Assembly: GCA_016214265.1 (NCBI GenBank)
Contig: JACROU010000049.1
Location: 9,589 to 73,588 of the forward strand
Length of the DNA: 64,000 nucleotides
Direction of reading: 5' to 3'
From: Candidatus Omnitrophota bacterium
GTDB lineage: Bacteria > Omnitrophota > Omnitrophia > Omnitrophales > JACROU01
Shown here: in pieces, positions 52,884 to 62,611 of the stretch
How the letters are laid out: the number at the start of each line of letters is the position of its first letter
How positions within the stretch are numbered: the stretch's first letter is position 1
Notes under the pieces: model-generated
The model's database searches: none
Told to the model about the DNA's origin: nothing
The model's input: only the letters and a program-made list of their open reading frames with translations
Program-made: the position numbers and the translations under genes

Positions 52884-54539
52884 ATGAGTGAAATTCTGAA
52901 AAAAATTTCAAAATTGGTGGAATCGGAAGATCCTGAACTGGCTGGCGCAAGCTTAAAAGTGGTCGGCGCGTTAAAACTCAAAAACAATCAAATTTTCAAA
53001 GGAATCAAGAAACATATTGAGAATGAGAATCCGCGATTGAAACAGGCCGCAATTGATACGTTGGGAAGAATCGGTTCTCAGGAATCCGTAGCGTATCTTT
53101 TTCCTATTTATAAGAATGACGCGAATTTAAGATCTCAGGTAGGGCATGCATTGGCTCAAATCGGGGATCCCGTGCTTCCGGCGCTTGAAAAAGAATATGA
53201 AAAAGCTGGGAATCAGCGGGAATATCGAAAATCGCTTCTTTCCGTGATTGCTCGGGTGAAATCACACGGGGCATTGAAATTTTTACTTGGGGCGTTATTT
53301 GATGAGGATTTGGAGATTTTAAAGCATGTTTGTTATGAAATGCGTAATGTTATCGAAAAAATAGATCTGAAAGAAAAAGCGAGTATTCAGCTTGCGGTAG
53401 CTGAAGGGATTCGCCGTGCGCAAACAAAAAAATTGAATAACACGCTCGTTTCTTTAATTATTATAGTCGGATATTTGGCGGATAAAAAATCCAAGAAAAC
53501 CTTGCTTCATTTTCTGGACAAAAAATTCCCATTCGTTCTGCGCCGCAACGCGCTGATATCTTTGGGGAGAATAGGTCTTCAGGGAAAAGGAAACGAAGAC
53601 ATGGTTGATGTTTTGGTGGCACTTTTTGAAGACAATGATTTTGCTGGTTTTCACCGCAGTATTATTGAAATCCTGGAAAAGCAGGAATTTTCAAAACCGG
53701 TTCTGAAACAGATCGTTAGACATGCGGAAAGCAAGTCGCCTGAAATCCGGCGTTTTGCGCTCTCTAAAATGAGCCATGTAGACACAAAAGAAAATGTGCA
53801 GCTACTGGTGAATAATTTGTTTCATCAGGATTATCAGGTACGCCAGTCATCGGAAGAAGCGCTGAAGAAAATGGCTTCGTCCGTACCGACATTGCTAAAA
53901 GTTCTGGCAAAAGAAGAATCCCCGGATCGATTGAACCGGATCGGGAATATTTTGTCGTTTCATCGCGGCGAGGTCTCTCAGTTGCGACTTAAAGAGATTT
54001 TCGCCTCGATGGAAAAGGCCATTGAGAAATTTGAGGATGTGAAAGCCCAGGCATACTTCAATATGCTGAAGCAAATCAACCCCGACTTCACACATCACGC
54101 GATTTTGAAGGAAGCGGCAGCTCTCAAAACAAAGAAAAAGTACAAAGAAGAGGTTAAATTGCTTGAATTATTGTCTTCTAGCACCGTTTTTACTAAAGAA
54201 GCTAAATGGGAGCTTATGGTGGCAAATTTGAAGCTTTCGTCAAAGGATTTGTCATCCGTAGCCAGAAATAATGATAGGGCTCTGGCTATGGTTATGGGGT
54301 TTATCAAGGCTCAGGACAAGGATTTGATCAAACGTCTATTCAAGGAAAAGGTGTTAACGCCTCAGGAGCTTTATTATCTGGGATTTCATTTCTCGGAAAA
54401 ACTATTCGATCAGAAACAATTTGGGGTGGACTTACTCAAGACCATGATAAAAAAGTCGCCTCGAAATCAGTTCAGCATTCAGGCGAAAAAGCGCCTGCAA
54501 GTCGTAGGAACTGCCACACAAACACTCGAGCAAAGCTAA
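52884..54539 (+). CDS. HEAT/PBS-lyase-type repeat protein
   Basis: 551 aa, all-helical, with repeated A..ALG.IG....V..L motifs (AIDTLGRIGSQESVAYL, VGHALAQIGDPVLPAL, ALISLGRIGLQG). Confidence 0.6.
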   Translation: MSEILKKISKLVESEDPELAGASLKVVGALKLKNNQIFKGIKKHIENENPRLKQAAIDTLGRIGSQESVAYLFPIYKNDANLRSQVGHALAQIGDPVLPALEKEYEKAGNQREYRKSLLSVIARVKSHGALKFLLGALFDEDLEILKHVCYEMRNVIEKIDLKEKASIQLAVAEGIRRAQTKKLNNTLVSLIIIVGYLADKKSKKTLLHFLDKKFPFVLRRNALISLGRIGLQGKGNEDMVDVLVALFEDNDFAGFHRSIIEILEKQEFSKPVLKQIVRHAESKSPEIRRFALSKMSHVDTKENVQLLVNNLFHQDYQVRQSSEEALKKMASSVPTLLKVLAKEESPDRLNRIGNILSFHRGEVSQLRLKEIFASMEKAIEKFEDVKAQAYFNMLKQINPDFTHHAILKEAAALKTKKKYKEEVKLLELLSSSTVFTKEAKWELMVANLKLSSKDLSSVARNNDRALAMVMGFIKAQDKDLIKRLFKEKVLTPQELYYLGFHFSEKLFDQKQFGVDLLKTMIKKSPRNQFSIQAKKRLQVVGTATQTLEQS

Positions 54540-54604: not shown

Positions 54605-54949
54605 CTATTTGTATATAGTGAATAGCGCCTGCAGGCCTTTGCAGTATTCCAGTGCATCCTGGGTTTTCCATCGGGTGGGAAAGTCGCGGCATTGTGCGGG
54701 TTTTACTGAGTGAATGCGGCAAGTGTTTCCTTCAAGCATCAGACACGAGCCATCGGGCTTGTTTTTGAGGGTTAATCGCGGCTTTTCGATGAGGTCACAG
54801 AAGCTATTGACGAAGGTCTCTTCTGTGATGTTTAAATGCTCTGAGATGCGGCTTATTTCATTCGTGGCGATATAAATATAGCCGGGATTAGTGCAGCATT
54901 TAAGGCAGCGCTGGCATTGGAATTCGTCTAAATGGTCCAAATAACTCAT
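54605..54949 (-). CDS. ykgJ: YkgJ-family cysteine-cluster protein (UPF0153)
   Basis: 114 aa. CQRCLKCC near the N-terminus plus C..C..C in the C-terminal half. Confidence 0.65.
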   Translation of the reverse strand: MSYLDHLDEFQCQRCLKCCTNPGYIYIATNEISRISEHLNITEETFVNSFCDLIEKPRLTLKNKPDGSCLMLEGNTCRIHSVKPAQCRDFPTRWKTQDALEYCKGLQALFTIYK

Positions 54950-55389
54950 TTTAATTTGCTGGAAACCAGGGAACTAACAGCTTTCCCATCTGCCCTCCCT
55001 TTAGTTTCTTCCATCACAAGTTTCATGACTTTACCCATATCCGCCTTGGTCGAAAGTCCGCTTGCGGCAAGGACTTTATTGACGATGGCTTCCAGTTCCT
55101 GAGACGTCATTTGTGCGGGTAAATAGGTTTCGAGGATTTTTAGCTCACGCTCTTCTTTGGCTACGAGGTCGGGGCGGTTACCTTTTTTGAACTCTTCAAT
55201 ACTATCGCGTCGCTGTTTCACCTGCCTCGTGATAATCAGGATGACATCCTCATCCACAGCATCCTTTTTTATTTTTTCGATAAGATATAGTTTTACGGCG
55301 GACATAACTCCCCGAAGTGTGTTTGTGCGGACTTCATCCCGGTCTTTCATTGCCGCTTTCATATCATCTTGAATTTTTACCAGAATCAT
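54946..55389 (-). CDS. yqeY: GatB/YqeY domain protein
   Basis: 147 aa. DDMKAAMKDRDEVRTNTLRGVMSAVK...ILETYLPAQMTSQELEAIV signature. Confidence 0.75.
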   Translation of the reverse strand: MILVKIQDDMKAAMKDRDEVRTNTLRGVMSAVKLYLIEKIKKDAVDEDVILIITRQVKQRRDSIEEFKKGNRPDLVAKEERELKILETYLPAQMTSQELEAIVNKVLAASGLSTKADMGKVMKLVMEETKGRADGKAVSSLVSSKLK

Positions 55390-55403: not shown

Positions 55404-55901
55404 TTATTGTTGATATGCGTCTGAAAGTTCAACTATTTTTGCTTGAAGTTTTGACAGATCCAAAAGAGCGACCGTCGGCTTGCCGTTCATGAGTCCGGAG
55501 CCTTCTCCGGGATTTAAAATTAGCGCCCGGTTCATTTTCTCGATTCTTGAGTTGTGAGTATTGCCGCAAATAATAATATCCACAAGCGTGCTTTCTTTGC
55601 CGAGGTTAACCGTCTTTTCGTCATGAATGATCAAAATTGATCGGTTATCTAAAATTAAATAATACGGAGGTTCTTTAATCGCGCCATGTGAAATATCAGC
55701 CGGACCCATTTTCCGGGCGTCGCTGTTGCCAAGTACCGCAAAAAATGGCACGCCGGAACATAGAAATTCCTTGGCGGTGGCCGGAGATGTGAAATCTCCA
55801 GCATGGATGATAGCGCCGACTTTTTGGGCTTTAAAAAATTTTATCGCATTCTGTACTTCCAGAATCGCGTCATGAGTGTCTGAGATTACGCCTACGAGCA
55901 T
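55404..55901 (-). CDS. yfcE: YfcE/MJ0936-family metallophosphoesterase
   Basis: 165 aa. GVISDTHD, HAGDF and GNTH motifs of the calcineurin-like phosphodiesterase family. Confidence 0.7.
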   Translation of the reverse strand: MLVGVISDTHDAILEVQNAIKFFKAQKVGAIIHAGDFTSPATAKEFLCSGVPFFAVLGNSDARKMGPADISHGAIKEPPYYLILDNRSILIIHDEKTVNLGKESTLVDIIICGNTHNSRIEKMNRALILNPGEGSGLMNGKPTVALLDLSKLQAKIVELSDAYQQ

Positions 55902-55907
55902 GTGGAT

Positions 55908-57776
55908 TTACCAGTCCTTGGCAACTTCGTGCCGCTTATAACTCTCGGGCGGACGTCTTAGATAAAGGAGCTCTTTTTCTGCGTCCTGGAGCGCGTTTAA
56001 GATTTTCAAAGCGCTTTCTTTGGAGATACGGTTAAACGAGCCGCGCGACTGCATGTTTGATCCTATAGCTTGAGGCGATTTATCTCCCGATTCTTCCCCG
56101 CCGCCAGGCATTTGCTTTTCAGTGGACTCCGAACCGGATTCCTCTGAGGGCTGCTGGGTGTCCTGTTCGCTGGTTCCGGATTGGTTTTTCTCCTGCAGCG
56201 CCTGCTCGCTTTGATAAGGGGTTTCTTCATTTTTTTGAGCGGTTTCTTGATCGGATTGTTCTTCTATGTTTTCTCCTTGCTCGGCTTCAGATTTTTTGCT
56301 TTCCTCGCCCTTTTCCTTTTGATCCTGATCTTGTTTTTCCTCTCCACCTTTTCCTTGTTCACCCTCTTGCATATTTTTCTGATCCTGCTTTTCCTGCTCT
56401 TGGCCTGGGCGTTGCAAACTCTTGCGCAATTCTTCTTCAAGTTTTTTGCTTAAATCACTTTCGCTTCCAAGATTTTGATCTTTCTTTTCGCCCTTCTGAT
56501 CTTTATCTTTTTGATCCTGTTGTTGCTCCTGCCCCTTACCTTGTTCGGGCTTGTTCTGATCTTTGCCTTTTTCTTGCTCATCTTTTTTATCCTGCTCGCC
56601 CTTTTGATCCGATTTTTGCTTGTCTTGTTCCTCGCCTTGCTCACCTTGTTTTTTATCTTGCTGCTGGTTTTCTTGTCCGCCTTTTTCCCCATGGCTAGGT
56701 TGATTTTTTTGATCTTGCCCTGATTGTTTTTGTTGCTGTTGATCCTGCCCTTGTTGGCCACCCTGGTTCTGATCCTTTTGGTCTTTCTGCTTTTGTTGCT
56801 GATCTTTCTGCTGATTCTTGTCCCCTTGCTGATTCTTTCTATCTTGCTCTGACTTTTGCTTTTGCTGATCCGATTGTTTGCCTTGAGCCCCTTGCTGATT
56901 TTGATCCTGCTTCATTTGGTCCTTCTGATCTTTCTGTTCCGACCCTTGAGCGCCTTGTTGTTGGTCTTTTTGGTCTTGCTTATTCTGATCCTTTTCTTGC
57001 TGATTCTTCTGGTCATTTTGTTGCTGGTCCTTTTGATCCTTCTGCTCCGACCCTTGACCGCCTTGTTGCTGCTGCTGTTTATCTTTCTGATTCTGTTGGT
57101 TTTGCTGCTGTTGCTGGGCTCCGCCGCCGTCACTTTGATTCTGCTGTTGTTGCTGGTTCTGCTGTTGATTCTGTTGAGACTGATTCTGTTGGTTTTGCTG
57201 TTGCTGTTGTTGGTTCTGTTGAGATTGGTTCTGCTGCTGATTCTGTTGAGATTGGTTCTGCTGATTTTGTTGTTGTTCGTTTTTCTGATTTTCCTTCTTT
57301 TCCTCTGGGGTACGGCGCTGGTCCTGTTGTTTTTCATGCTCATTTTTCTTTTGCAATAGAAATTCCAAATTATACTTGGCATCCAAATCTTTCGGATTGA
57401 TATCGAGGGCTTTTTTGTACGCGGCGATGGCCTGATCGAAATTGCCAAGCCGGTATTGCGAATTTCCGTAATTGTAAAGCGCCTGTTCTGTAAGCGTAGA
57501 ATTTTTGGGAAGAACTTTTAAAGACCGCTCAAATTCCTGATTTGCCTCTTTGTGCTGACCCAATTTGTATAGGGCACTTCCCATGTTGTAATGAATTTCA
57601 GGATTTGCGGTATCCTTTCTGGAAGCATCTCTGTAGTTTTCAAGAGCTTGACGATACCGCTTTTCTTGGAAGAGATCATTTCCTTTTTTGGTTAGAGATT
57701 CCTTTGTATCCAGAAAACCCATAAAAAATGGGCAAATTCCAAGAAGCAATAATACAGTTAAACATCTTATTTTCAT
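55908..57776 (-). CDS. TPR-repeat protein of the Bat-like operon (BatC-like) with a ~420-aa Q/N/K/D/E low-complexity insertion
   Basis: 622 aa. N-terminal hydrophobic signal/anchor, about 3 TPR repeats (YNMGSALYKLGQHKEANQEFERSL, YNYGNSQYRLGNFDQAIAAYKKAL). A long tract of QQNQQNQSQQNQ..., KDQ, EQG and EEK repeats follows, then a short structured C-terminus (SFNRISKESALKILNALQDAEKELLYLRRP). Confidence 0.6.
   Translation of the reverse strand: MKIRCLTVLLLLGICPFFMGFLDTKESLTKKGNDLFQEKRYRQALENYRDASRKDTANPEIHYNMGSALYKLGQHKEANQEFERSLKVLPKNSTLTEQALYNYGNSQYRLGNFDQAIAAYKKALDINPKDLDAKYNLEFLLQKKNEHEKQQDQRRTPEEKKENQKNEQQQNQQNQSQQNQQQNQSQQNQQQQQQNQQNQSQQNQQQNQQQQQNQSDGGGAQQQQQNQQNQKDKQQQQQGGQGSEQKDQKDQQQNDQKNQQEKDQNKQDQKDQQQGAQGSEQKDQKDQMKQDQNQQGAQGKQSDQQKQKSEQDRKNQQGDKNQQKDQQQKQKDQKDQNQGGQQGQDQQQQKQSGQDQKNQPSHGEKGGQENQQQDKKQGEQGEEQDKQKSDQKGEQDKKDEQEKGKDQNKPEQGKGQEQQQDQKDKDQKGEKKDQNLGSESDLSKKLEEELRKSLQRPGQEQEKQDQKNMQEGEQGKGGEEKQDQDQKEKGEESKKSEAEQGENIEEQSDQETAQKNEETPYQSEQALQEKNQSGTSEQDTQQPSEESGSESTEKQMPGGGEESGDKSPQAIGSNMQSRGSFNRISKESALKILNALQDAEKELLYLRRPPESYKRHEVAKDW
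56040..57310. repeat. simple-sequence / low-complexity DNA encoding the Q/N/K/D/E tract
   Basis: The plus strand is dominated by CTG/TTG/CTT/TTT repeats (...ctgttgttgctggttctgctgttgattctgttgagactgattctgttgg...). Multiple long antisense ORFs of poly-L/I/F occur here (e.g. 56856-57359), which are artifacts of the repeat. Confidence 0.8.
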
Positions 57777-58789
57777 GAAGCTATCCCCGTCTTCTTACGA
57801 TCGCTAATCAGGAGCTCAAGCATAAGTAGAATTAAAGCCGGAAATAGGAAAATCTGATAGTGCTCTTCCTTTTCAATAACATCCTGGGCTTTAAATGTCT
57901 TCTTGCCCAGCCCCTGTATATGAGTGTAAATCAAATCCATCTCTTTTTCACTGGGGGTGGACGGAAAATATAGGCCGCCTGTTTCCCGGGCGATTTTCTC
58001 AAGAAGTTCGTCATCCAGCTTGCTGATAACCACTTTCCCAAGGCGGTCCTTCTTGAATCCGCTTACTTGTCCTCCCCTGCCTGAGGTTAAGGGGATTGGG
58101 GCGCCCTGTTTTGTGCCAAAACCAATACAATAGATGCGTACTTTGGCGGCTTTAGCCTTTTGTATGACCTCAGTGGCCTGACTGGTAGTCTCTTCACCAT
58201 CCGAGAAAATCATCATTACTTTATATTTGTTATCTCCCTTCGGAAAGGCCCCGAGGCCCGTTCGAATAGCATCTGTGAGCGATGAGCCGGGATCCGGGAC
58301 ATAGCCAACTTTGATTGCGTCCAGGAAGAGAAGAAATGCCCCGTAATCGATCGTTAGTGGAGCCTGCAAAAAAGCAGATCCCGAGAAAGCAACCAAAGCG
58401 ATGCGGTCGCCTTTCAATTTTTTGAGAACATTGCGAATTTCAATTTTGGCTTTATCGAACCTGCTGGGTTTCGTGTCCTGAGTGAGCATGCTGAGCGAGG
58501 TGTCAAAAAGGAAAACGATGTCTACACCCTTTCGCTGTACTTGCCTTTTTTCTTCTCCCCATTGCGGACGCGCTAACGCCAATACACACAGTAGAACCGC
58601 CATTATAATCAACGCGGCTTTAAACGCCGGACGCTTTGAGGACGAAAATGGCGCAAGTTTTGGAATCATTTCAAGATCTGCGAATTTGCCAAGTGATCGG
58701 GATTTGATCCAGTGACGGAACCCGAAAATAAGCGCCGCGATAGGAATCAAGACTAGAAAAACAAAAGCAGATGGATTAAAAAATTGCAT
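57773..58789 (-). CDS. vWA-domain membrane protein (BatB-like)
   Basis: 338 aa. Two N-terminal TM helices and a vWA MIDAS motif (DIVFLFDTSLSM...SDGEET). Confidence 0.7.
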   Translation of the reverse strand: MQFFNPSAFVFLVLIPIAALIFGFRHWIKSRSLGKFADLEMIPKLAPFSSSKRPAFKAALIIMAVLLCVLALARPQWGEEKRQVQRKGVDIVFLFDTSLSMLTQDTKPSRFDKAKIEIRNVLKKLKGDRIALVAFSGSAFLQAPLTIDYGAFLLFLDAIKVGYVPDPGSSLTDAIRTGLGAFPKGDNKYKVMMIFSDGEETTSQATEVIQKAKAAKVRIYCIGFGTKQGAPIPLTSGRGGQVSGFKKDRLGKVVISKLDDELLEKIARETGGLYFPSTPSEKEMDLIYTHIQGLGKKTFKAQDVIEKEEHYQIFLFPALILLMLELLISDRKKTGIAS

Positions 58790-58801: not shown

Positions 58802-59782
58802 TCACGGTAATTTTATCAGCACAGTGGATCCGAGAATGATTTCTAAAAGTAAAATGAGCAAAGCCGGCCACAGGGCGTAATGAAACAGTTCGTTGTAGTT
58901 GGAATACTCTTTCACTTTAATTTCGCTCTTCTCAAGCTTGTCGATTTTTTTGTAAGCGTCTTGTAGCCCCTGAGTGTCGCGTGCGCGAAAGAATATTCCG
59001 TTGGTAATGTCCGCGATGCGTTTCAGCACTTTCTCATCAATGTCGACCTTAGCCTGAACATATCGGCGGCCAAACAGAGGATCATCAATTGGGAAAGGAA
59101 CCAGGCCTCCTTTTCCGATGCCAATGGTATAGATTTTGATGCCAAAACCTTGAGCCAATTCCGCGGCGGTAATCGGATCGATGTTGCCGGAATTGTTTTC
59201 TCCGTCAGTAATAAGAATGATGACTTTGCTTTTCGCGTCGCTCTCGCGCAGGCGATTGACCGCGTTGGCGATACCAAGTCCGATAGCCGTTCCGTCCTTG
59301 ATCATGCCAAGCTTGATGTCGTCTACGAGAGATGTCAGCACGTCATAGTCCAAAGTCATCGGGCATTGGGTATAACTCTGCCGCGCAAATACCACCAGGC
59401 CGATTCGGTCATGCTTTCTTCCCAGGATAAATCTCTTAGCTTCTTCCTTCGCCACGGTAATGCGGTTTTGCGGATGAAAGTCCTCAGCCTGCATGGAACC
59501 AGAGATATCCAACGCAATCACAATATCGATGCCCTTGGTCTCGACTTCCCGTTCACTCTCCGTGGATTGGGGTCTGGTCATAGCGAGAATAACAAGAACC
59601 AAAGCCAATATTCGAATGAGTGCCAGCAAACGCGTTGGATTTTGGGACTCGGTGATTTTGATTTTATTGATCACGGCGAGTGTGGGAAAGCGTAAGCTGG
59701 GCCTTCTCTTCTTAATCGCTGTAAAGAAGAGCCATGGCAGAATCAATAATGCCAAAAAGAAAATCGGTGATGCAAAATGCAT
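58802..59782 (-). CDS. vWA-domain membrane protein (BatA-like)
   Basis: 326 aa. N-terminal TMs, MIDAS IDIVIALDISGSM...TDGENN, and a C-terminal TM. Confidence 0.7.
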   Translation of the reverse strand: MHFASPIFFLALLILPWLFFTAIKKRRPSLRFPTLAVINKIKITESQNPTRLLALIRILALVLVILAMTRPQSTESEREVETKGIDIVIALDISGSMQAEDFHPQNRITVAKEEAKRFILGRKHDRIGLVVFARQSYTQCPMTLDYDVLTSLVDDIKLGMIKDGTAIGLGIANAVNRLRESDAKSKVIILITDGENNSGNIDPITAAELAQGFGIKIYTIGIGKGGLVPFPIDDPLFGRRYVQAKVDIDEKVLKRIADITNGIFFRARDTQGLQDAYKKIDKLEKSEIKVKEYSNYNELFHYALWPALLILLLEIILGSTVLIKLP

Positions 59783-60729
59783 TATTTGGATACCTCTTCT
59801 CGTGCTTCAATCGGTTTAGTCTTTTCCACAAGCTGGATCGCTAATTTTAAGTCTTTTTGAATTTCGCTGGGCGCCGGTGCGATGTTGGCAAATTTAACAA
59901 AGTCAGTCGCCTCAAAAAAGAGATCCGCGACCTGAATCTGATCAAGCGGCAAATCTCTTTTCTGAAATTCATAAATAATTTCGGAACTGGTATCTTCAAG
60001 AGCTTTAAATCCGTAGCGCTTTTGAAAATATTTTTTGATAACGTTCGACATGCGAAAATAATATTCCTGCACGTGCCCCTTTGCTAGCAGTCCGGAATCC
60101 TCGAGCCGGTGCAGTGCCTGAATAGCTTCTTCAGCCGGTTTGAGTGGTGGCGCGAAGAAGCGCAACAAAAGATCCCGGTGATTGAACCAAAGCCAGACAA
60201 AGAGAATCACCAGCAATCCCAGCAGAGTTCCGGCCGCAATCAAAATCATTTTAAAGAGCTGGGAAGGCAGATTCGTGATGGATTTGATATCCCGAATGTC
60301 ACGCTTTGGTGCCCGGGATTTATCGATGGATTCTACGGTGACATAAAGTTTGTTGGTTTTAATTTCTTTTTCTTTGCCGTCAACGTCTTTATACCGGATG
60401 GTGATGGGGTCGATAACGTATTCCCCAACCGAATATGAGGTGATAGTGAAAATTTTGCCCTCAACGATGTAGCCCTTTTCTTTTGTGGGGGTAATTTCCC
60501 GTGTTGATTTGATGTCGAAATCGCGAAGCTTGGTCACCGGGTTGGTGGTCAAAATATCCACGTCTGGGTCGTGGCGGATCTCAATTTTATAGTCGACTTT
60601 ATCCCCTACCGTCATGAAGGCCTTATTGACCGAGGCTTTGACGATAATGGAGGGTTTAGCCGCGTAAACCGCAGGAATAAGCAGCAGGGCAGCTATAACT
60701 AAAGCAAAGAAAAAGCGTAATGGTTTCAT
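59782..60729 (-). CDS. DUF4381-like bitopic membrane protein (signal peptide, periplasmic beta domain, TM, cytoplasmic helical domain)
   Basis: 315 aa. Signal MKPLRFFFALVIAALLLIPAVYA, central TM ILIAAGTLLGLLVILFVWLWF, and a helical C-domain. Its position between DUF58 and vWA genes matches the usual Bat-operon layout. The family call rests on architecture and context only. Confidence 0.45.
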   Translation of the reverse strand: MKPLRFFFALVIAALLLIPAVYAAKPSIIVKASVNKAFMTVGDKVDYKIEIRHDPDVDILTTNPVTKLRDFDIKSTREITPTKEKGYIVEGKIFTITSYSVGEYVIDPITIRYKDVDGKEKEIKTNKLYVTVESIDKSRAPKRDIRDIKSITNLPSQLFKMILIAAGTLLGLLVILFVWLWFNHRDLLLRFFAPPLKPAEEAIQALHRLEDSGLLAKGHVQEYYFRMSNVIKKYFQKRYGFKALEDTSSEIIYEFQKRDLPLDQIQVADLFFEATDFVKFANIAPAPSEIQKDLKLAIQLVEKTKPIEAREEVSK

Positions 60730-60731
60730 GC

Positions 60732-61619
60732 CTACCTAAACCGTTTTTCGCGAGCGCGGAAGAATTTAATAAGGGGTTCCACGTACGATTTCGTAATATT
60801 GATTTCAATTTTATCCAGGCCCACTTTTTTGAAAAGTTTGTCAATTTGCTCAAGATTTTGCGATGTTATTTTCTTGAAAATCTCCTGAAATTTTGAGCTG
60901 TTGGTGTGCGCCATGACCTCATCGCCGGTTTCAGCGTCTTCCAGAACGACGTAACCCATTTTCGGAATTTCCCGCTCGCGCGGATCAAACAAATGAATAC
61001 CGATGATGTCGTGTTCTTTCCCAAGAATTTTAAGCGGTTTTTCATATCCGCTATCGAGAAAATCGGAAATAAGAAAAATGACAGCCCGTCGGTTTAGGAC
61101 ATTGCTCAAATATTGAAGCACCATGCCCATATCTGTTTTCGTGCGTTCGGGTTTGTAAGTGAGAATCTCGCGCACGACTCGAAGGGCGTGTGACTTTCCT
61201 TTTTTGACGGGGATGTATTTTTCGATCCGGTCCGTAAAAAATGCCAGGCCCACTTTGTCGTTGTTGATGACAGCTGAGAAAGCCAGAAGAGCCGTAATTT
61301 CCGCAGCGACTTCATACTTCATTTTTTTGCCAGACCCGAAAAAATTGGAAAACGAGGCATCGACGACGAAAAGAACCGTGAGCTCGCGCTCTTCGACGTA
61401 TTTTTTGACGAACGGACGTTGACTTCGCGCCGTCACGTTCCAGTCGATGGTGCGGATATCGTCACCCGGGACGTACTCGCGAACGTCGGCGAATTCGATG
61501 CCTTGTCCTTTGAAGACAGACTCATACTCCCCGCCGAACAAATCGTTAACGAGCCGGTTTGTCCGGATTTCGATGAGTTTAACTTTGCTGAGTGTTTCTT
61601 TGGACAGCGTTGGGGTCAT
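60732..61619 (-). CDS. DUF58 domain protein (MoxR-associated)
   Basis: 295 aa. GEYESVFKGQGIEFADVREYVPGDDIRTIDWNVTARS is the DUF58 signature. Located downstream of MoxR. Confidence 0.75.
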   Translation of the reverse strand: MTPTLSKETLSKVKLIEIRTNRLVNDLFGGEYESVFKGQGIEFADVREYVPGDDIRTIDWNVTARSQRPFVKKYVEERELTVLFVVDASFSNFFGSGKKMKYEVAAEITALLAFSAVINNDKVGLAFFTDRIEKYIPVKKGKSHALRVVREILTYKPERTKTDMGMVLQYLSNVLNRRAVIFLISDFLDSGYEKPLKILGKEHDIIGIHLFDPREREIPKMGYVVLEDAETGDEVMAHTNSSKFQEIFKKITSQNLEQIDKLFKKVGLDKIEINITKSYVEPLIKFFRAREKRFR

Positions 61620-62611
61620 GGAACCTCAATTTGATCGAAAATCTTGGTAATGATGTCTTCTGAGGTCATTTCCTCTGCTTCTGCTTCGTACGTGACCAGA
61701 ACGCGGTGGCGAAGAACATCCATGCCGATTTGTTTGACGTCTTCCGGCGTGACATAGGCCCGTCCGCGCAGGAATGCATGTGCTTTTGCTGCGGTCGTGA
61801 GCATGATGCTGGCACGTGGAGAAGCACCGTAGGCAATCAGGCTCTTCAGATTTTCCAGTTTGTAAAGCGCCGGGGTCCTTGTGGCGAACACAAGATCCAG
61901 GATGTAATCCTTCACTTTCTCGTCCACATAAATTTGTTCGACGAGTTTACGCAGGCGCATGATGTCTTGCGGCGTCAGCACGGGATTGACCTTGGGTTCA
62001 TGGCCCGAAGTGACCAGCTCAAGAATTTCCTTTTCTTCTTTTTTGTTTGGGTACGTAATTTTCAGTTTCAACATGAAACGGTCGACTTGAGCTTCGGGAA
62101 GCGGATATGTTCCTTCCTGCTCGATCGGGTTTTGTGTTGCGAGCACCAGAAAAGGCTCTTCCAGTTTGAATGTGTTCTCGCCGATCGTGACCTGGCGTTC
62201 CTGCATGGCCTCGAGAAGTGCGCTCTGAACTTTGGAGGGGGCGCGATTAATTTCGTCTGCCAGAATGATGTTAGCGAACACGGGGCCCTTCTTCGTTGTG
62301 AAGTTTCCGTCTTTCGGGTTATACACAAGCGTTCCGATTAAATCGGCGGGCAACAAATCCGGCGTGAACTGAATGCGTTGGAATTTTGTTTGCACGGCCT
62401 CGGCCAGGGTTTTAACGGATTTTGTTTTCGCTAGTCCCGGAACGCCCTCGATGAGGATATGTCCGTTGCCCAAAATGCTGATCAAAAGCCGCTCGATCAG
62501 ATACTTCTGACCAACGATGACTTTGTGAATTTCGTTCGTGAGCTCCTGGATTTTGCTGTGCTCGGATTTTACTTTTTCTGTAAGATCTTTAATGGCTGTT
62601 GCTGTTTCCAT
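61616..62611 (-). CDS. moxR: MoxR-family AAA+ ATPase
   Basis: 331 aa. Walker A GVPGLAKT, Walker B ILADEINRAP, sensor regions, and the C-terminal AAA lid typical of MoxR. Confidence 0.88.
   Translation of the reverse strand: METATAIKDLTEKVKSEHSKIQELTNEIHKVIVGQKYLIERLLISILGNGHILIEGVPGLAKTKSVKTLAEAVQTKFQRIQFTPDLLPADLIGTLVYNPKDGNFTTKKGPVFANIILADEINRAPSKVQSALLEAMQERQVTIGENTFKLEEPFLVLATQNPIEQEGTYPLPEAQVDRFMLKLKITYPNKKEEKEILELVTSGHEPKVNPVLTPQDIMRLRKLVEQIYVDEKVKDYILDLVFATRTPALYKLENLKSLIAYGASPRASIMLTTAAKAHAFLRGRAYVTPEDVKQIGMDVLRHRVLVTYEAEAEEMTSEDIITKIFDQIEVP

Follow-up and report, generated by a model that had tools for sequence, protein, structure and literature searches.

The long low-complexity tract of an Omnitrophota BatC protein as an extreme version of a family-wide linker and probable periplasmic tether

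We analyzed a stretch of 64,000 nucleotides from contig JACROU010000049.1 of a Candidatus Omnitrophota genome (assembly GCA_016214265.1), hereafter called the window, in which a single open reading frame (ORF) on the minus strand (55908-57776) encodes a protein of 622 amino acids (aa), followed by a stop codon, with a long glutamine-rich tract in its middle. By homology, operon position and architecture, all judged from sequence, this protein is a member of the BatC family, and comparison with its relatives indicates that the tract is an extreme-length version of a linker present throughout the family and no new kind of element. We infer, as a probable reading held with some reserve, that the linker of this envelope-operon protein serves as a flexible periplasmic tether for the short conserved module at its C terminus, an inference that covers its location, its role and its partner.

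The protein is built of four parts, all given here in window coordinates of the minus strand. It starts with a hydrophobic signal-anchor, MKIRCLTVLLLLGICPFFMGF (aa 1-21; 57714-57776), apparent from the sequence as a hydrophobic segment at aa 5-21 and predicted by AlphaFold2 (AF2) as a helix spanning residues 2-19. Three tetratricopeptide repeats (TPRs) and a capping helix follow (aa 22-146; 57339-57713), matched by Pfam TPR_1, TPR_2 and TPR_11 and modeled with a predicted local distance difference test (pLDDT) score of 97-98; the closest Foldseek match of this domain was CTPR3 (1na0; 37% identity, root mean square deviation of 1.2 Å), and the TPRs of SGT, RPAP3 and OGT were matched as well. 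The low-complexity linker, rich in Q, K, E, G, D, N and S (aa 147-577, 431-432 aa; 56046-57338), is recognizable by its composition, its entropy, its open frame and the AF2 model, and its limits were set by the family hidden Markov model (HMM) and the alignment boundaries. The C-terminal module (aa 578-622; 55911-56045), delimited by alignment and AF2, consists of an amphipathic helix, ISKESALKILNALQDAEKELLYL, followed by RRPP... and a terminal KDW-COOH. The original prediction, made from the DNA of the window before this analysis, had placed a low-complexity tract at 56040-57310, in good agreement with these limits, and the peptides quoted from it (QQNQQNQSQQNQ, KDQKDQ and GEQDKKDEQEKGKDQ) are all present in the translation.

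The composition of the linker sets it apart from the rest of the protein. Over aa 146-580, glutamine accounts for 33.6% of the residues (34% Q for the tract), followed by K (13.3%), E (11.7%), G (9.4%), D (8.5%), N (6.9%) and S (6.9%), while I, L, V, F, M, W, Y and C together make up only 3%, versus 34% in the TPR part. Measured in windows of 40 aa, Shannon entropy is low, 1.6 to 2.8 bits over aa ~150-500 versus 3.5 to 3.9 bits in the two flanking parts, TPR and C-terminal, and the final 45 residues are back to a normal composition. Along the linker, composition follows a gradient that is common to the relatives, from an uncharged Q/N block beside the TPR domain through a balanced K/D/Q polyampholyte to an acidic part rich in E, S and G. 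The Q/N block (aa 166-235; 57072-57281) is 81% Q+N and contains the only weak tandem structure of the tract, with periods of ~36 to 45 nucleotides (nt).

Assignment to the BatC family is supported by profile matches along the whole gene set. The best NCBIfam match of the protein is NF047507 (TPR_BatC_Lepto), with an E value of 7e-24 over profile positions 28-184 of 214. The score of 84.5 bits, which rises to 95.1 bits with the linker removed, lies under the curated cutoff of 175 bits, which is not surprising since the model is a Leptospira-specific one of the "exception" type; once the linker was deleted, the Leptospira BatC profile extended into the C-terminal helix. The gene closes a row of co-directional genes, MoxR-DUF58-(315-aa protein)-BatA-BatB-BatC, and its ATG shares bases with the batB stop codon (ATGA; 57773-57776, minus strand). 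Together with the ORF list and the Pfam TPR matches of the gene itself, the Pfam and NCBIfam matches across the MoxR-DUF58-VWA-VWA-TPR series bear out the earlier description of a BatC-like TPR protein in a Bat operon. The order MoxR, DUF58, BatA, BatB, TPR is the same as that of the Bat operons of B. fragilis (batA to batE), Leptospira (BatC, NF047507) and Borrelia (BB0170-BB0176 region), and like the known BatC proteins, the window protein has a membrane anchor, three TPRs, a polar linker and a C-terminal helix motif. Unlike in the known systems, however, the linker is about five times the family median and no BatD or BatE is adjacent to BatC in the Omnitrophota operon.

This plan turned out to be common to the entire family. 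Scanning genomes with BatA gave 26 loci for comparison (L001 and following), and all 22 complete BatC or BatB::BatC proteins encoded there, from Omnitrophota, WOR-3, Bacteroidota, Desulfobulbales-type Desulfobacterota, Myxococcota and Verrucomicrobiota, display three TPRs, a stretch rich in Q, K, D, E and N, and a conserved end. This end reads G-x-M-[ST]-K-E-x-A-x-x-[LI]-L-x-A-L-x-x-x-E, followed by some 15 to 20 variable residues and a terminal [KRQM][DN]W, and alignment of the loci showed the C-terminal module to be conserved across phyla. The window protein likewise carries the combination of linker, C-terminal helix and [KR][DN]W-COOH, a feature that we define in the present analysis. The C-terminal 50 to 59 aa alone had no significant match in Pfam, NCBIfam or the PDB sequences, an exact look-up of the 622-aa protein found no record, and in our searches of the literature on BatC disorder, low complexity and C-terminal motifs and on Omnitrophota, we found neither the linker nor the DW tail described.

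Larger searches gave the same picture. A word-indexed search limited to the TPR part returned only four weak matches and was replaced by a profile of the TPR domain and the C-terminal motif built from the loci. This profile found 598 proteins at an E value of ≤1e-6; both modules were present in 103 of the best 120 of these, separated by linkers of 38 to 128 aa (median, 82) that consisted to 91% of Q, N, K, D, E, S, G, P and T (mean Q fraction, 0.36), and the 103 proteins ended in DW (100 cases) or NW (3 cases). A search started from a Bacteroidota member found 2169 relatives, cultured Pedobacter species included, and among the best 120 of them, 118 had K/Q/D/N linkers of 50 to 90 aa, 114 of these 118 ending in KDW. 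When both searches were pooled (best 120 of each), the shared plan was seen in 221 of 240 relatives. A full-protein phmmer search against 1.84 billion representatives was dominated by giant multi-TPR proteins, with about 15 BatC-like proteins among the 150 matches listed. The local HMM of the C-terminal motif missed the window protein as well as those of L002 and L005, probably owing to the composition-bias correction that HMMER applies in long low-complexity sequences, and the boundaries in these three proteins were taken from a manual alignment.

What distinguishes the window protein within the family is the length of its linker, which at 432 aa, versus a typical 60 to 95 aa, is the longest among the proteins compared, the next ones measuring 388 (L002), 363 (L001), 276, 261 and 259 aa. 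Those of the runners-up that carry a taxonomic label are all Omnitrophota, the others being sequences of the fused BatB::BatC type from metagenome-assembled genomes (MAGs) or databases. Omnitrophota linkers otherwise range from ~130 to 390 aa, and the residues that follow the TPR domain number 182 to 433 in all nine Omnitrophota-type loci versus 69 to 167 in other phyla. The expectation that tract length would differ among relatives was thus borne out (432 aa versus ~363, 388 and 261 aa in other Omnitrophota), while the statement that such a tract is unusual for a BatC protein holds for its exceptional length and not for its presence, since the succession of linker, helix and DW is the rule in at least five named phyla.

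The linkers of the Bacteroidota members (P0295, P0336 and P0340, all from Pedobacter species) are made up of genuine (KDQDKK)n-type peptide repeats, with more K and D and less Q than in Omnitrophota linkers. What the linkers of both phyla have in common is a highly polar composition of mixed charge (~60% of the residues are charged in Bacteroidota linkers), not glutamine itself.

A composition of this kind raises the question of prion-like behavior, in which the Q/N block would drive Bat complexes into a condensate or gel in the periplasm. By composition alone, aa 166-235 belongs with the Q/N-rich domains, the usual criterion for which is at least 30 Q or N per window of 80 residues, and its 81% Q+N exceeds the usual compositional thresholds. 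Most of the tract, however, is a balanced polyampholyte without aromatic "stickers," and the K/D-rich and Q-poorer linkers of the Bacteroidota argue that Q/N content is not the conserved property. On the sequence evidence, we regard phase separation as a very improbable function of the tract.

Comparison with the closest orthologue, that of L001, showed how the tract evolves. Between the two proteins, the TPR domain is ~78% identical and the C-terminal 42 residues are ~93% identical, while the linkers differ by many insertions and deletions (indels) and cannot be aligned, only their composition being kept. Selection thus appears to act on composition and on in-frame arrival at the C-terminal module rather than on sequence. 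The one exception is an alignable island, SES[DE]LSKKLEE[ED]LRKSL, at aa 438-455 (SESDLSKKLEEELRKSL; 56412-56465, minus strand), which corresponds to SESELSKKLEEDLRKSL of L001, is partly conserved in L002 and is predicted as a helix over residues 439-454 (pLDDT, ~75); this island may be a second interaction motif. A further feature of the linker is an imperfect internal duplication (56917-57115, minus strand), two 91-nt copies that are 78% identical, lie 108 nt (36 aa) apart and encode the repeated peptide block (Q)G.QGSEQKDQKDQ...; it looks like a trace of growth through in-frame duplication. Linker length would drift through in-frame changes of this kind, indels as well as duplications, and has reached three to five times the family norm in Omnitrophota.

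Whether this growth had any function is a separate matter. If any flexible hydrophilic spacer of at least ~40 aa suffices, the excess could be neutral, Omnitrophota having accumulated in-frame duplications and insertions under almost no constraint on length. The more than 10-fold variation of the linker across the family (38 to 432 aa) with flanking modules unchanged, the fast turnover of indels between close relatives and the decayed duplication with its 108-nt spacing are in line with this explanation. The shift is lineage wide, however, since all nine Omnitrophota-type loci have long linkers, which could reflect selection too, and a conserved helix island lies inside the linker. We therefore see neutral growth as a real possibility that nevertheless falls short of being likely.

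At the DNA level, the tract is not a repeat in the strict sense. The original prediction had described it as simple-repeat, microsatellite-like DNA, prone to replication slippage and to assembly collapse, but neither description was supported. Tandem Repeats Finder reported only weak arrays, with periods of 24, 36 and 45 nt and 67 to 78% matches, all inside 56983-57275. Within the 1.3 kb of the tract, exact repeats reach 23 nt at most, and perfect runs of a 3-nt unit extend to 11 nt (3.7 units) and those of a 6-nt unit to 15 nt (2.5 units). No codon occurs more than three times in succession, the longest run of glutamines is six residues, and CAA and CAG codons (82:64) are interleaved. The tract is thus "cryptically simple" in the protein, with no true repeat in the DNA. 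No slip-prone perfect or near-perfect array of 1- to 6-nt units, as expected of a microsatellite or contingency locus, was found in it, and the 23-nt maximal repeat and the mixed synonymous codons make slippage or assembly collapse unlikely. Tract length does vary between related genomes, as it would if the gene were switched on and off or changed in length at high frequency by slippage, but given the absence of any longer perfect run, the mixed codons and the low match percentages of the arrays, a contingency locus can hardly be credited.

The reading frame itself argues against an artifact. The tract contains no stop among its 431 codons, compared to a mean of 16 in mononucleotide shuffles, not one of 2000 shuffles being free of stops, and it forms one continuous ORF between an ordinary TPR N terminus and a short structured C terminus, as originally described. 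Since the open frame runs on into the conserved tail, and since in orthologues a single ORF encodes both the TPR domain and the C-terminal motif, the possibility of two separate genes joined by a frameshift, which would have undone the original prediction, is excluded. Low-complexity sequence in a metagenome-type genome is prima facie suspect, and the tract could have come from a repeat that was chimeric or had been collapsed or expanded, or from two genes joined by a frameshift. The longest exact repeat is, however, below usual assembly k-mers, the stop-free frame ends in the conserved family C terminus, and independent MAGs from other studies have linkers of 261 to 388 aa with matching flanks, so that an assembly artifact is highly improbable.

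The coding strand of the tract is poor in T (8.4%), and because of this composition, long off-frame ORFs arise on both strands. Antisense frames 0 and 2 contain just five and two stops, respectively, and the Leu/Ile/Phe-rich antisense ORFs on the plus strand (56181-56453, 56475-56723 and 56856-57359) mirror the T-poor coding strand, in keeping with their earlier description as by-products. Additional spurious ORFs, rich in K, R, N and S, lie in another frame of the minus strand (56450-56761 and 56912-57448). The off-frame ORFs over window positions 56181-57448 should not be called genes in annotation, where they present a risk of misannotation by gene callers.

Structure prediction agreed in large part with the disorder expected of the tract. 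In the AF2 monomer of the 622-aa protein, computed from an alignment of 104 sequences, pLDDT was below 50 for most of residues 215-244, 350-437 and 472-581, and in a homologue of 215 aa, the entire linker was predicted as coil (pLDDT, 45 to 57). The C-terminal helix was modeled at residues 586-607 with a pLDDT of 76 to 90. The Uversky charge-hydropathy plot was uninformative, as it labeled the TPR domain as disordered as well. Besides the island, two stretches of the tract were drawn as helices, residues 157-210 (pLDDT, 61 to 82) and residues 244-338 (pLDDT, 53 to 90). The second of these (56763-57047, minus strand) is a single helix of 95 residues running through K/D/Q-rich low complexity; it may be either an artifact of the alignment or a real stiff segment.

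Read at face value, these helices would favor a stiff rod holding a set distance, in the form of a single alpha-helix or of a coiled coil rich in Q. We hold them with caution because the alignment columns of the linker are not homologous and because the features of single alpha-helices and coiled coils are absent, and AF2 often draws helices on such sequences. Opposite-charge pairs at i/i+3 and i/i+4 are sparse (0.04 and 0.15 per residue; 0.04 to 0.22 where single alpha-helix features were checked) and glycine makes up 9% of the residues, so that by this measure the tract is no single alpha-helix, for which a dense i to i+4 network of Glu with Lys or Arg, free of helix breakers, is expected; the central K/D/Q-rich part is dominated by Asp and not by Glu, GG and GGG interrupt the tract, and no hydrophobic heptad is present. 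Since the linker of the short homologue is in addition predicted as coil, a rod seems rather improbable to us.

We then considered where the linker lies. Judging from the distribution of charges, the layout of the fused proteins and the topology of a Borrelia homologue, TPR domain, linker and tail are most likely periplasmic. In the BatB::BatC fusions of L002 and L004-L008, two transmembrane (TM) helices joined by a short loop (TM-DRKK-TM) stand between the VWA and TPR domains, which places both domains on one side of the membrane, with the positively charged loops pointing to the cytoplasm, and the signal-anchor of the window BatC is the positional homologue of TM helix 4 in these fusions. 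Experiments on BB0173, a BatA homologue of Borrelia, showed that its VWA domain is exposed to the periplasm (PMC5700661). In the proposed arrangement, an inner-membrane anchor would hold the three TPRs in the periplasm, and the linker would be a flexible, hydrophilic, non-sticky tether on which the C-terminal module could seek out a partner, and bind it, away from the membrane-anchored TPR domain. Candidate partners would be the periplasmic VWA domains of BatA and BatB with their MIDAS (metal ion-dependent adhesion sites), the TPR groove of another subunit or a component of the outer envelope. Both BatA and BatB retain the DxSxS MIDAS motif, and MIDAS sites characteristically bind an acidic ligand.

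The TPR groove as a partner recalls the binders of the EEVD-COOH end of Hsp70 and Hsp90, Hop, SGT and RPAP3, the TPRs of the latter two being among the closest natural structural matches to the BatC TPR domain. The invariant acidic-aromatic C terminus of the BatC family could, by analogy with EEVD-COOH, be a TPR ligand. However, the AF2 monomers leave the BatC tail undocked, and in a manual alignment to Hop TPR1, the Lys/Arg positions of the canonical carboxylate clamp are not conserved in the BatC TPR domain.

Precedents exist for a spacer of this kind. Like the window protein, E. coli FtsN is a bitopic inner-membrane protein in which a Q-rich periplasmic region joins a membrane-proximal part to a C-terminal module, its glutamine-rich middle region lying between membrane-proximal helices and a SPOR domain (PMC7939390). 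Unlike FtsN, with which it shares no sequence homology, the window protein ends in a 45-aa helix plus DW tail and not in a SPOR domain. The FtsN linker is also several times shorter than that of the window BatC. In TonB- and LpoB-type spacers, a low-complexity or disordered segment extends the reach of a membrane-anchored protein across the periplasm; TonB combines a rigid Pro-rich (EP/KP) spacer with a folded C-terminal domain, and LpoB is anchored in the outer membrane. BatC resembles these proteins by its disordered spacer, although spanning of the periplasm is only proposed in its case.

Length itself could also be adaptive. As in TonB, LpoB and FtsN, the linker would then act as a ruler or a reach across the periplasm, taking the C-terminal module away from the inner membrane and as far as the peptidoglycan or outer membrane, and it would be longer where BatD and BatE are lacking or the envelope is different. 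A rough estimate of the end-to-end distance of a coil gives ~20 nm for 432 aa versus ~7 nm for 82 aa. The Omnitrophota Bat operons (L001-L008, L019 and the window) all stop at BatC, after which come a metallophosphoesterase and/or YqeY gene, whereas WOR-3, Bacteroidota and Desulfobulbales loci encode a BatD of ~590 to 620 aa and a BatE-like TPR protein of ~250 aa downstream. This absence of a downstream BatD and BatE-like TPR protein may have a bearing on linker length. BatD and BatE may, however, sit elsewhere in the genome, and the C-terminal module contains no outer membrane- or peptidoglycan-binding domain recognizable in Pfam, NCBIfam or the PDB. An adaptive gain in reach thus seems unlikely to us, if conceivable; neutral drift and longer reach are both compatible with the linker length seen in Omnitrophota.

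Several points weigh against a flexible tether as we propose it. Given the long AF2 helices at 157-210 and 244-338, some of the linker may form a stiff rod rather than a random coil. Docking of the tail on the TPR domain of the same molecule, which we also considered, received no support from the AF2 monomers, the last 10 to 15 residues having a pLDDT below 57 in both the 622-aa and the 215-aa proteins. The idea of a tether alone gives no reason for a linker that is three to five times longer in Omnitrophota. Finally, the function of the Bat system as a whole is elusive, Bat proteins being described in the literature searched only as VWA- and TPR-domain proteins that may form a periplasmic complex (PMC3557215, PMC5700661).

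The genes around batC complete the picture of the operon, all on the minus strand. BatB (57773-58789; Pfam VWA and BatA_N, NCBIfam VWA_BatB_Lepto) carries two TM helices at its N terminus, a VWA domain whose MIDAS motif reads DTSLS and one TM helix at its C terminus, and BatA (58802-59782; Pfam and NCBIfam matches) has the same architecture with the motif DISGS. The 315-aa membrane protein (59782-60729) is composed of a signal sequence, an N-terminal part rich in beta structure, a TM helix in mid-protein and a C-terminal domain; 16 of the 26 loci keep it in its position between DUF58 and BatA, and its sole match is the DUF11-like domain of BatD in Pfam, below threshold (E = 0.0033; 18.5 bits versus a cutoff of 24.1). 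Next come the DUF58 protein (60732-61619; Pfam DUF58, 1.6e-75) and the MoxR-type AAA+ ATPase (61616-62611; Pfam AAA_3, 2.1e-66, and AAA_lid_2). On the other side, past BatC, the genes at 55404-55901 and 54946-55389 occupy the position of the metallophosphoesterase and/or YqeY. No BatD homologue was found within the 64-kb window. A 551-aa protein of helical-repeat appearance (HEAT-like by eye) is encoded on the plus strand (52884-54539), convergent to the genes on the bat side, and an ORF of 550 to 552 aa lies at the equivalent relative position on the opposite strand in L001 to L003.

Judged by BatA, the closest loci are those of nine MAGs (60 to 76% identity, matching gene order), six of them labeled Candidatus Omnitrophota or Omnitrophica and three uncultured bacteria, the remaining loci showing at most 45% identity. 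In 25 of the 26 loci, batC directly follows batB or is fused to it, L022 being a short fragment with BatA only. The two genes form one fused ORF in L002 and L004-L008 (538 aa in a copy cut by a contig end, up to 908 aa) and are split in L001, L003 and L019. With six fused and three split relatives of the Omnitrophota type, fusion and fission have thus recurred within one phylum, and the same split-or-fused polymorphism of batB and batC is known in Leptospira (PMC3557215).

A broader and speculative extension, to which we give little credence for now, is that the TPR-tether-helix-DW-COOH arrangement is an unrecognized module of all Bat/MoxR-VWA systems. The DW end would be a tethered ligand for the MIDAS of BatA or BatB or for a TPR groove in trans, tether length would set its reach or effective concentration, and the expansion in Omnitrophota together with the missing BatD and BatE would reflect a rewired complex.

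Taken together, these data give a clearer anatomy of BatC, in which the linker is conserved and selected by composition, and the C-terminal helix with its DW tail is the conserved piece. For the Bat system, whose function has been without resolution since 1999, this anatomy is a practical gain, and the Omnitrophota proteins, with linkers from ~130 to 432 aa, provide natural length variants with which the question of tether length may be approached.

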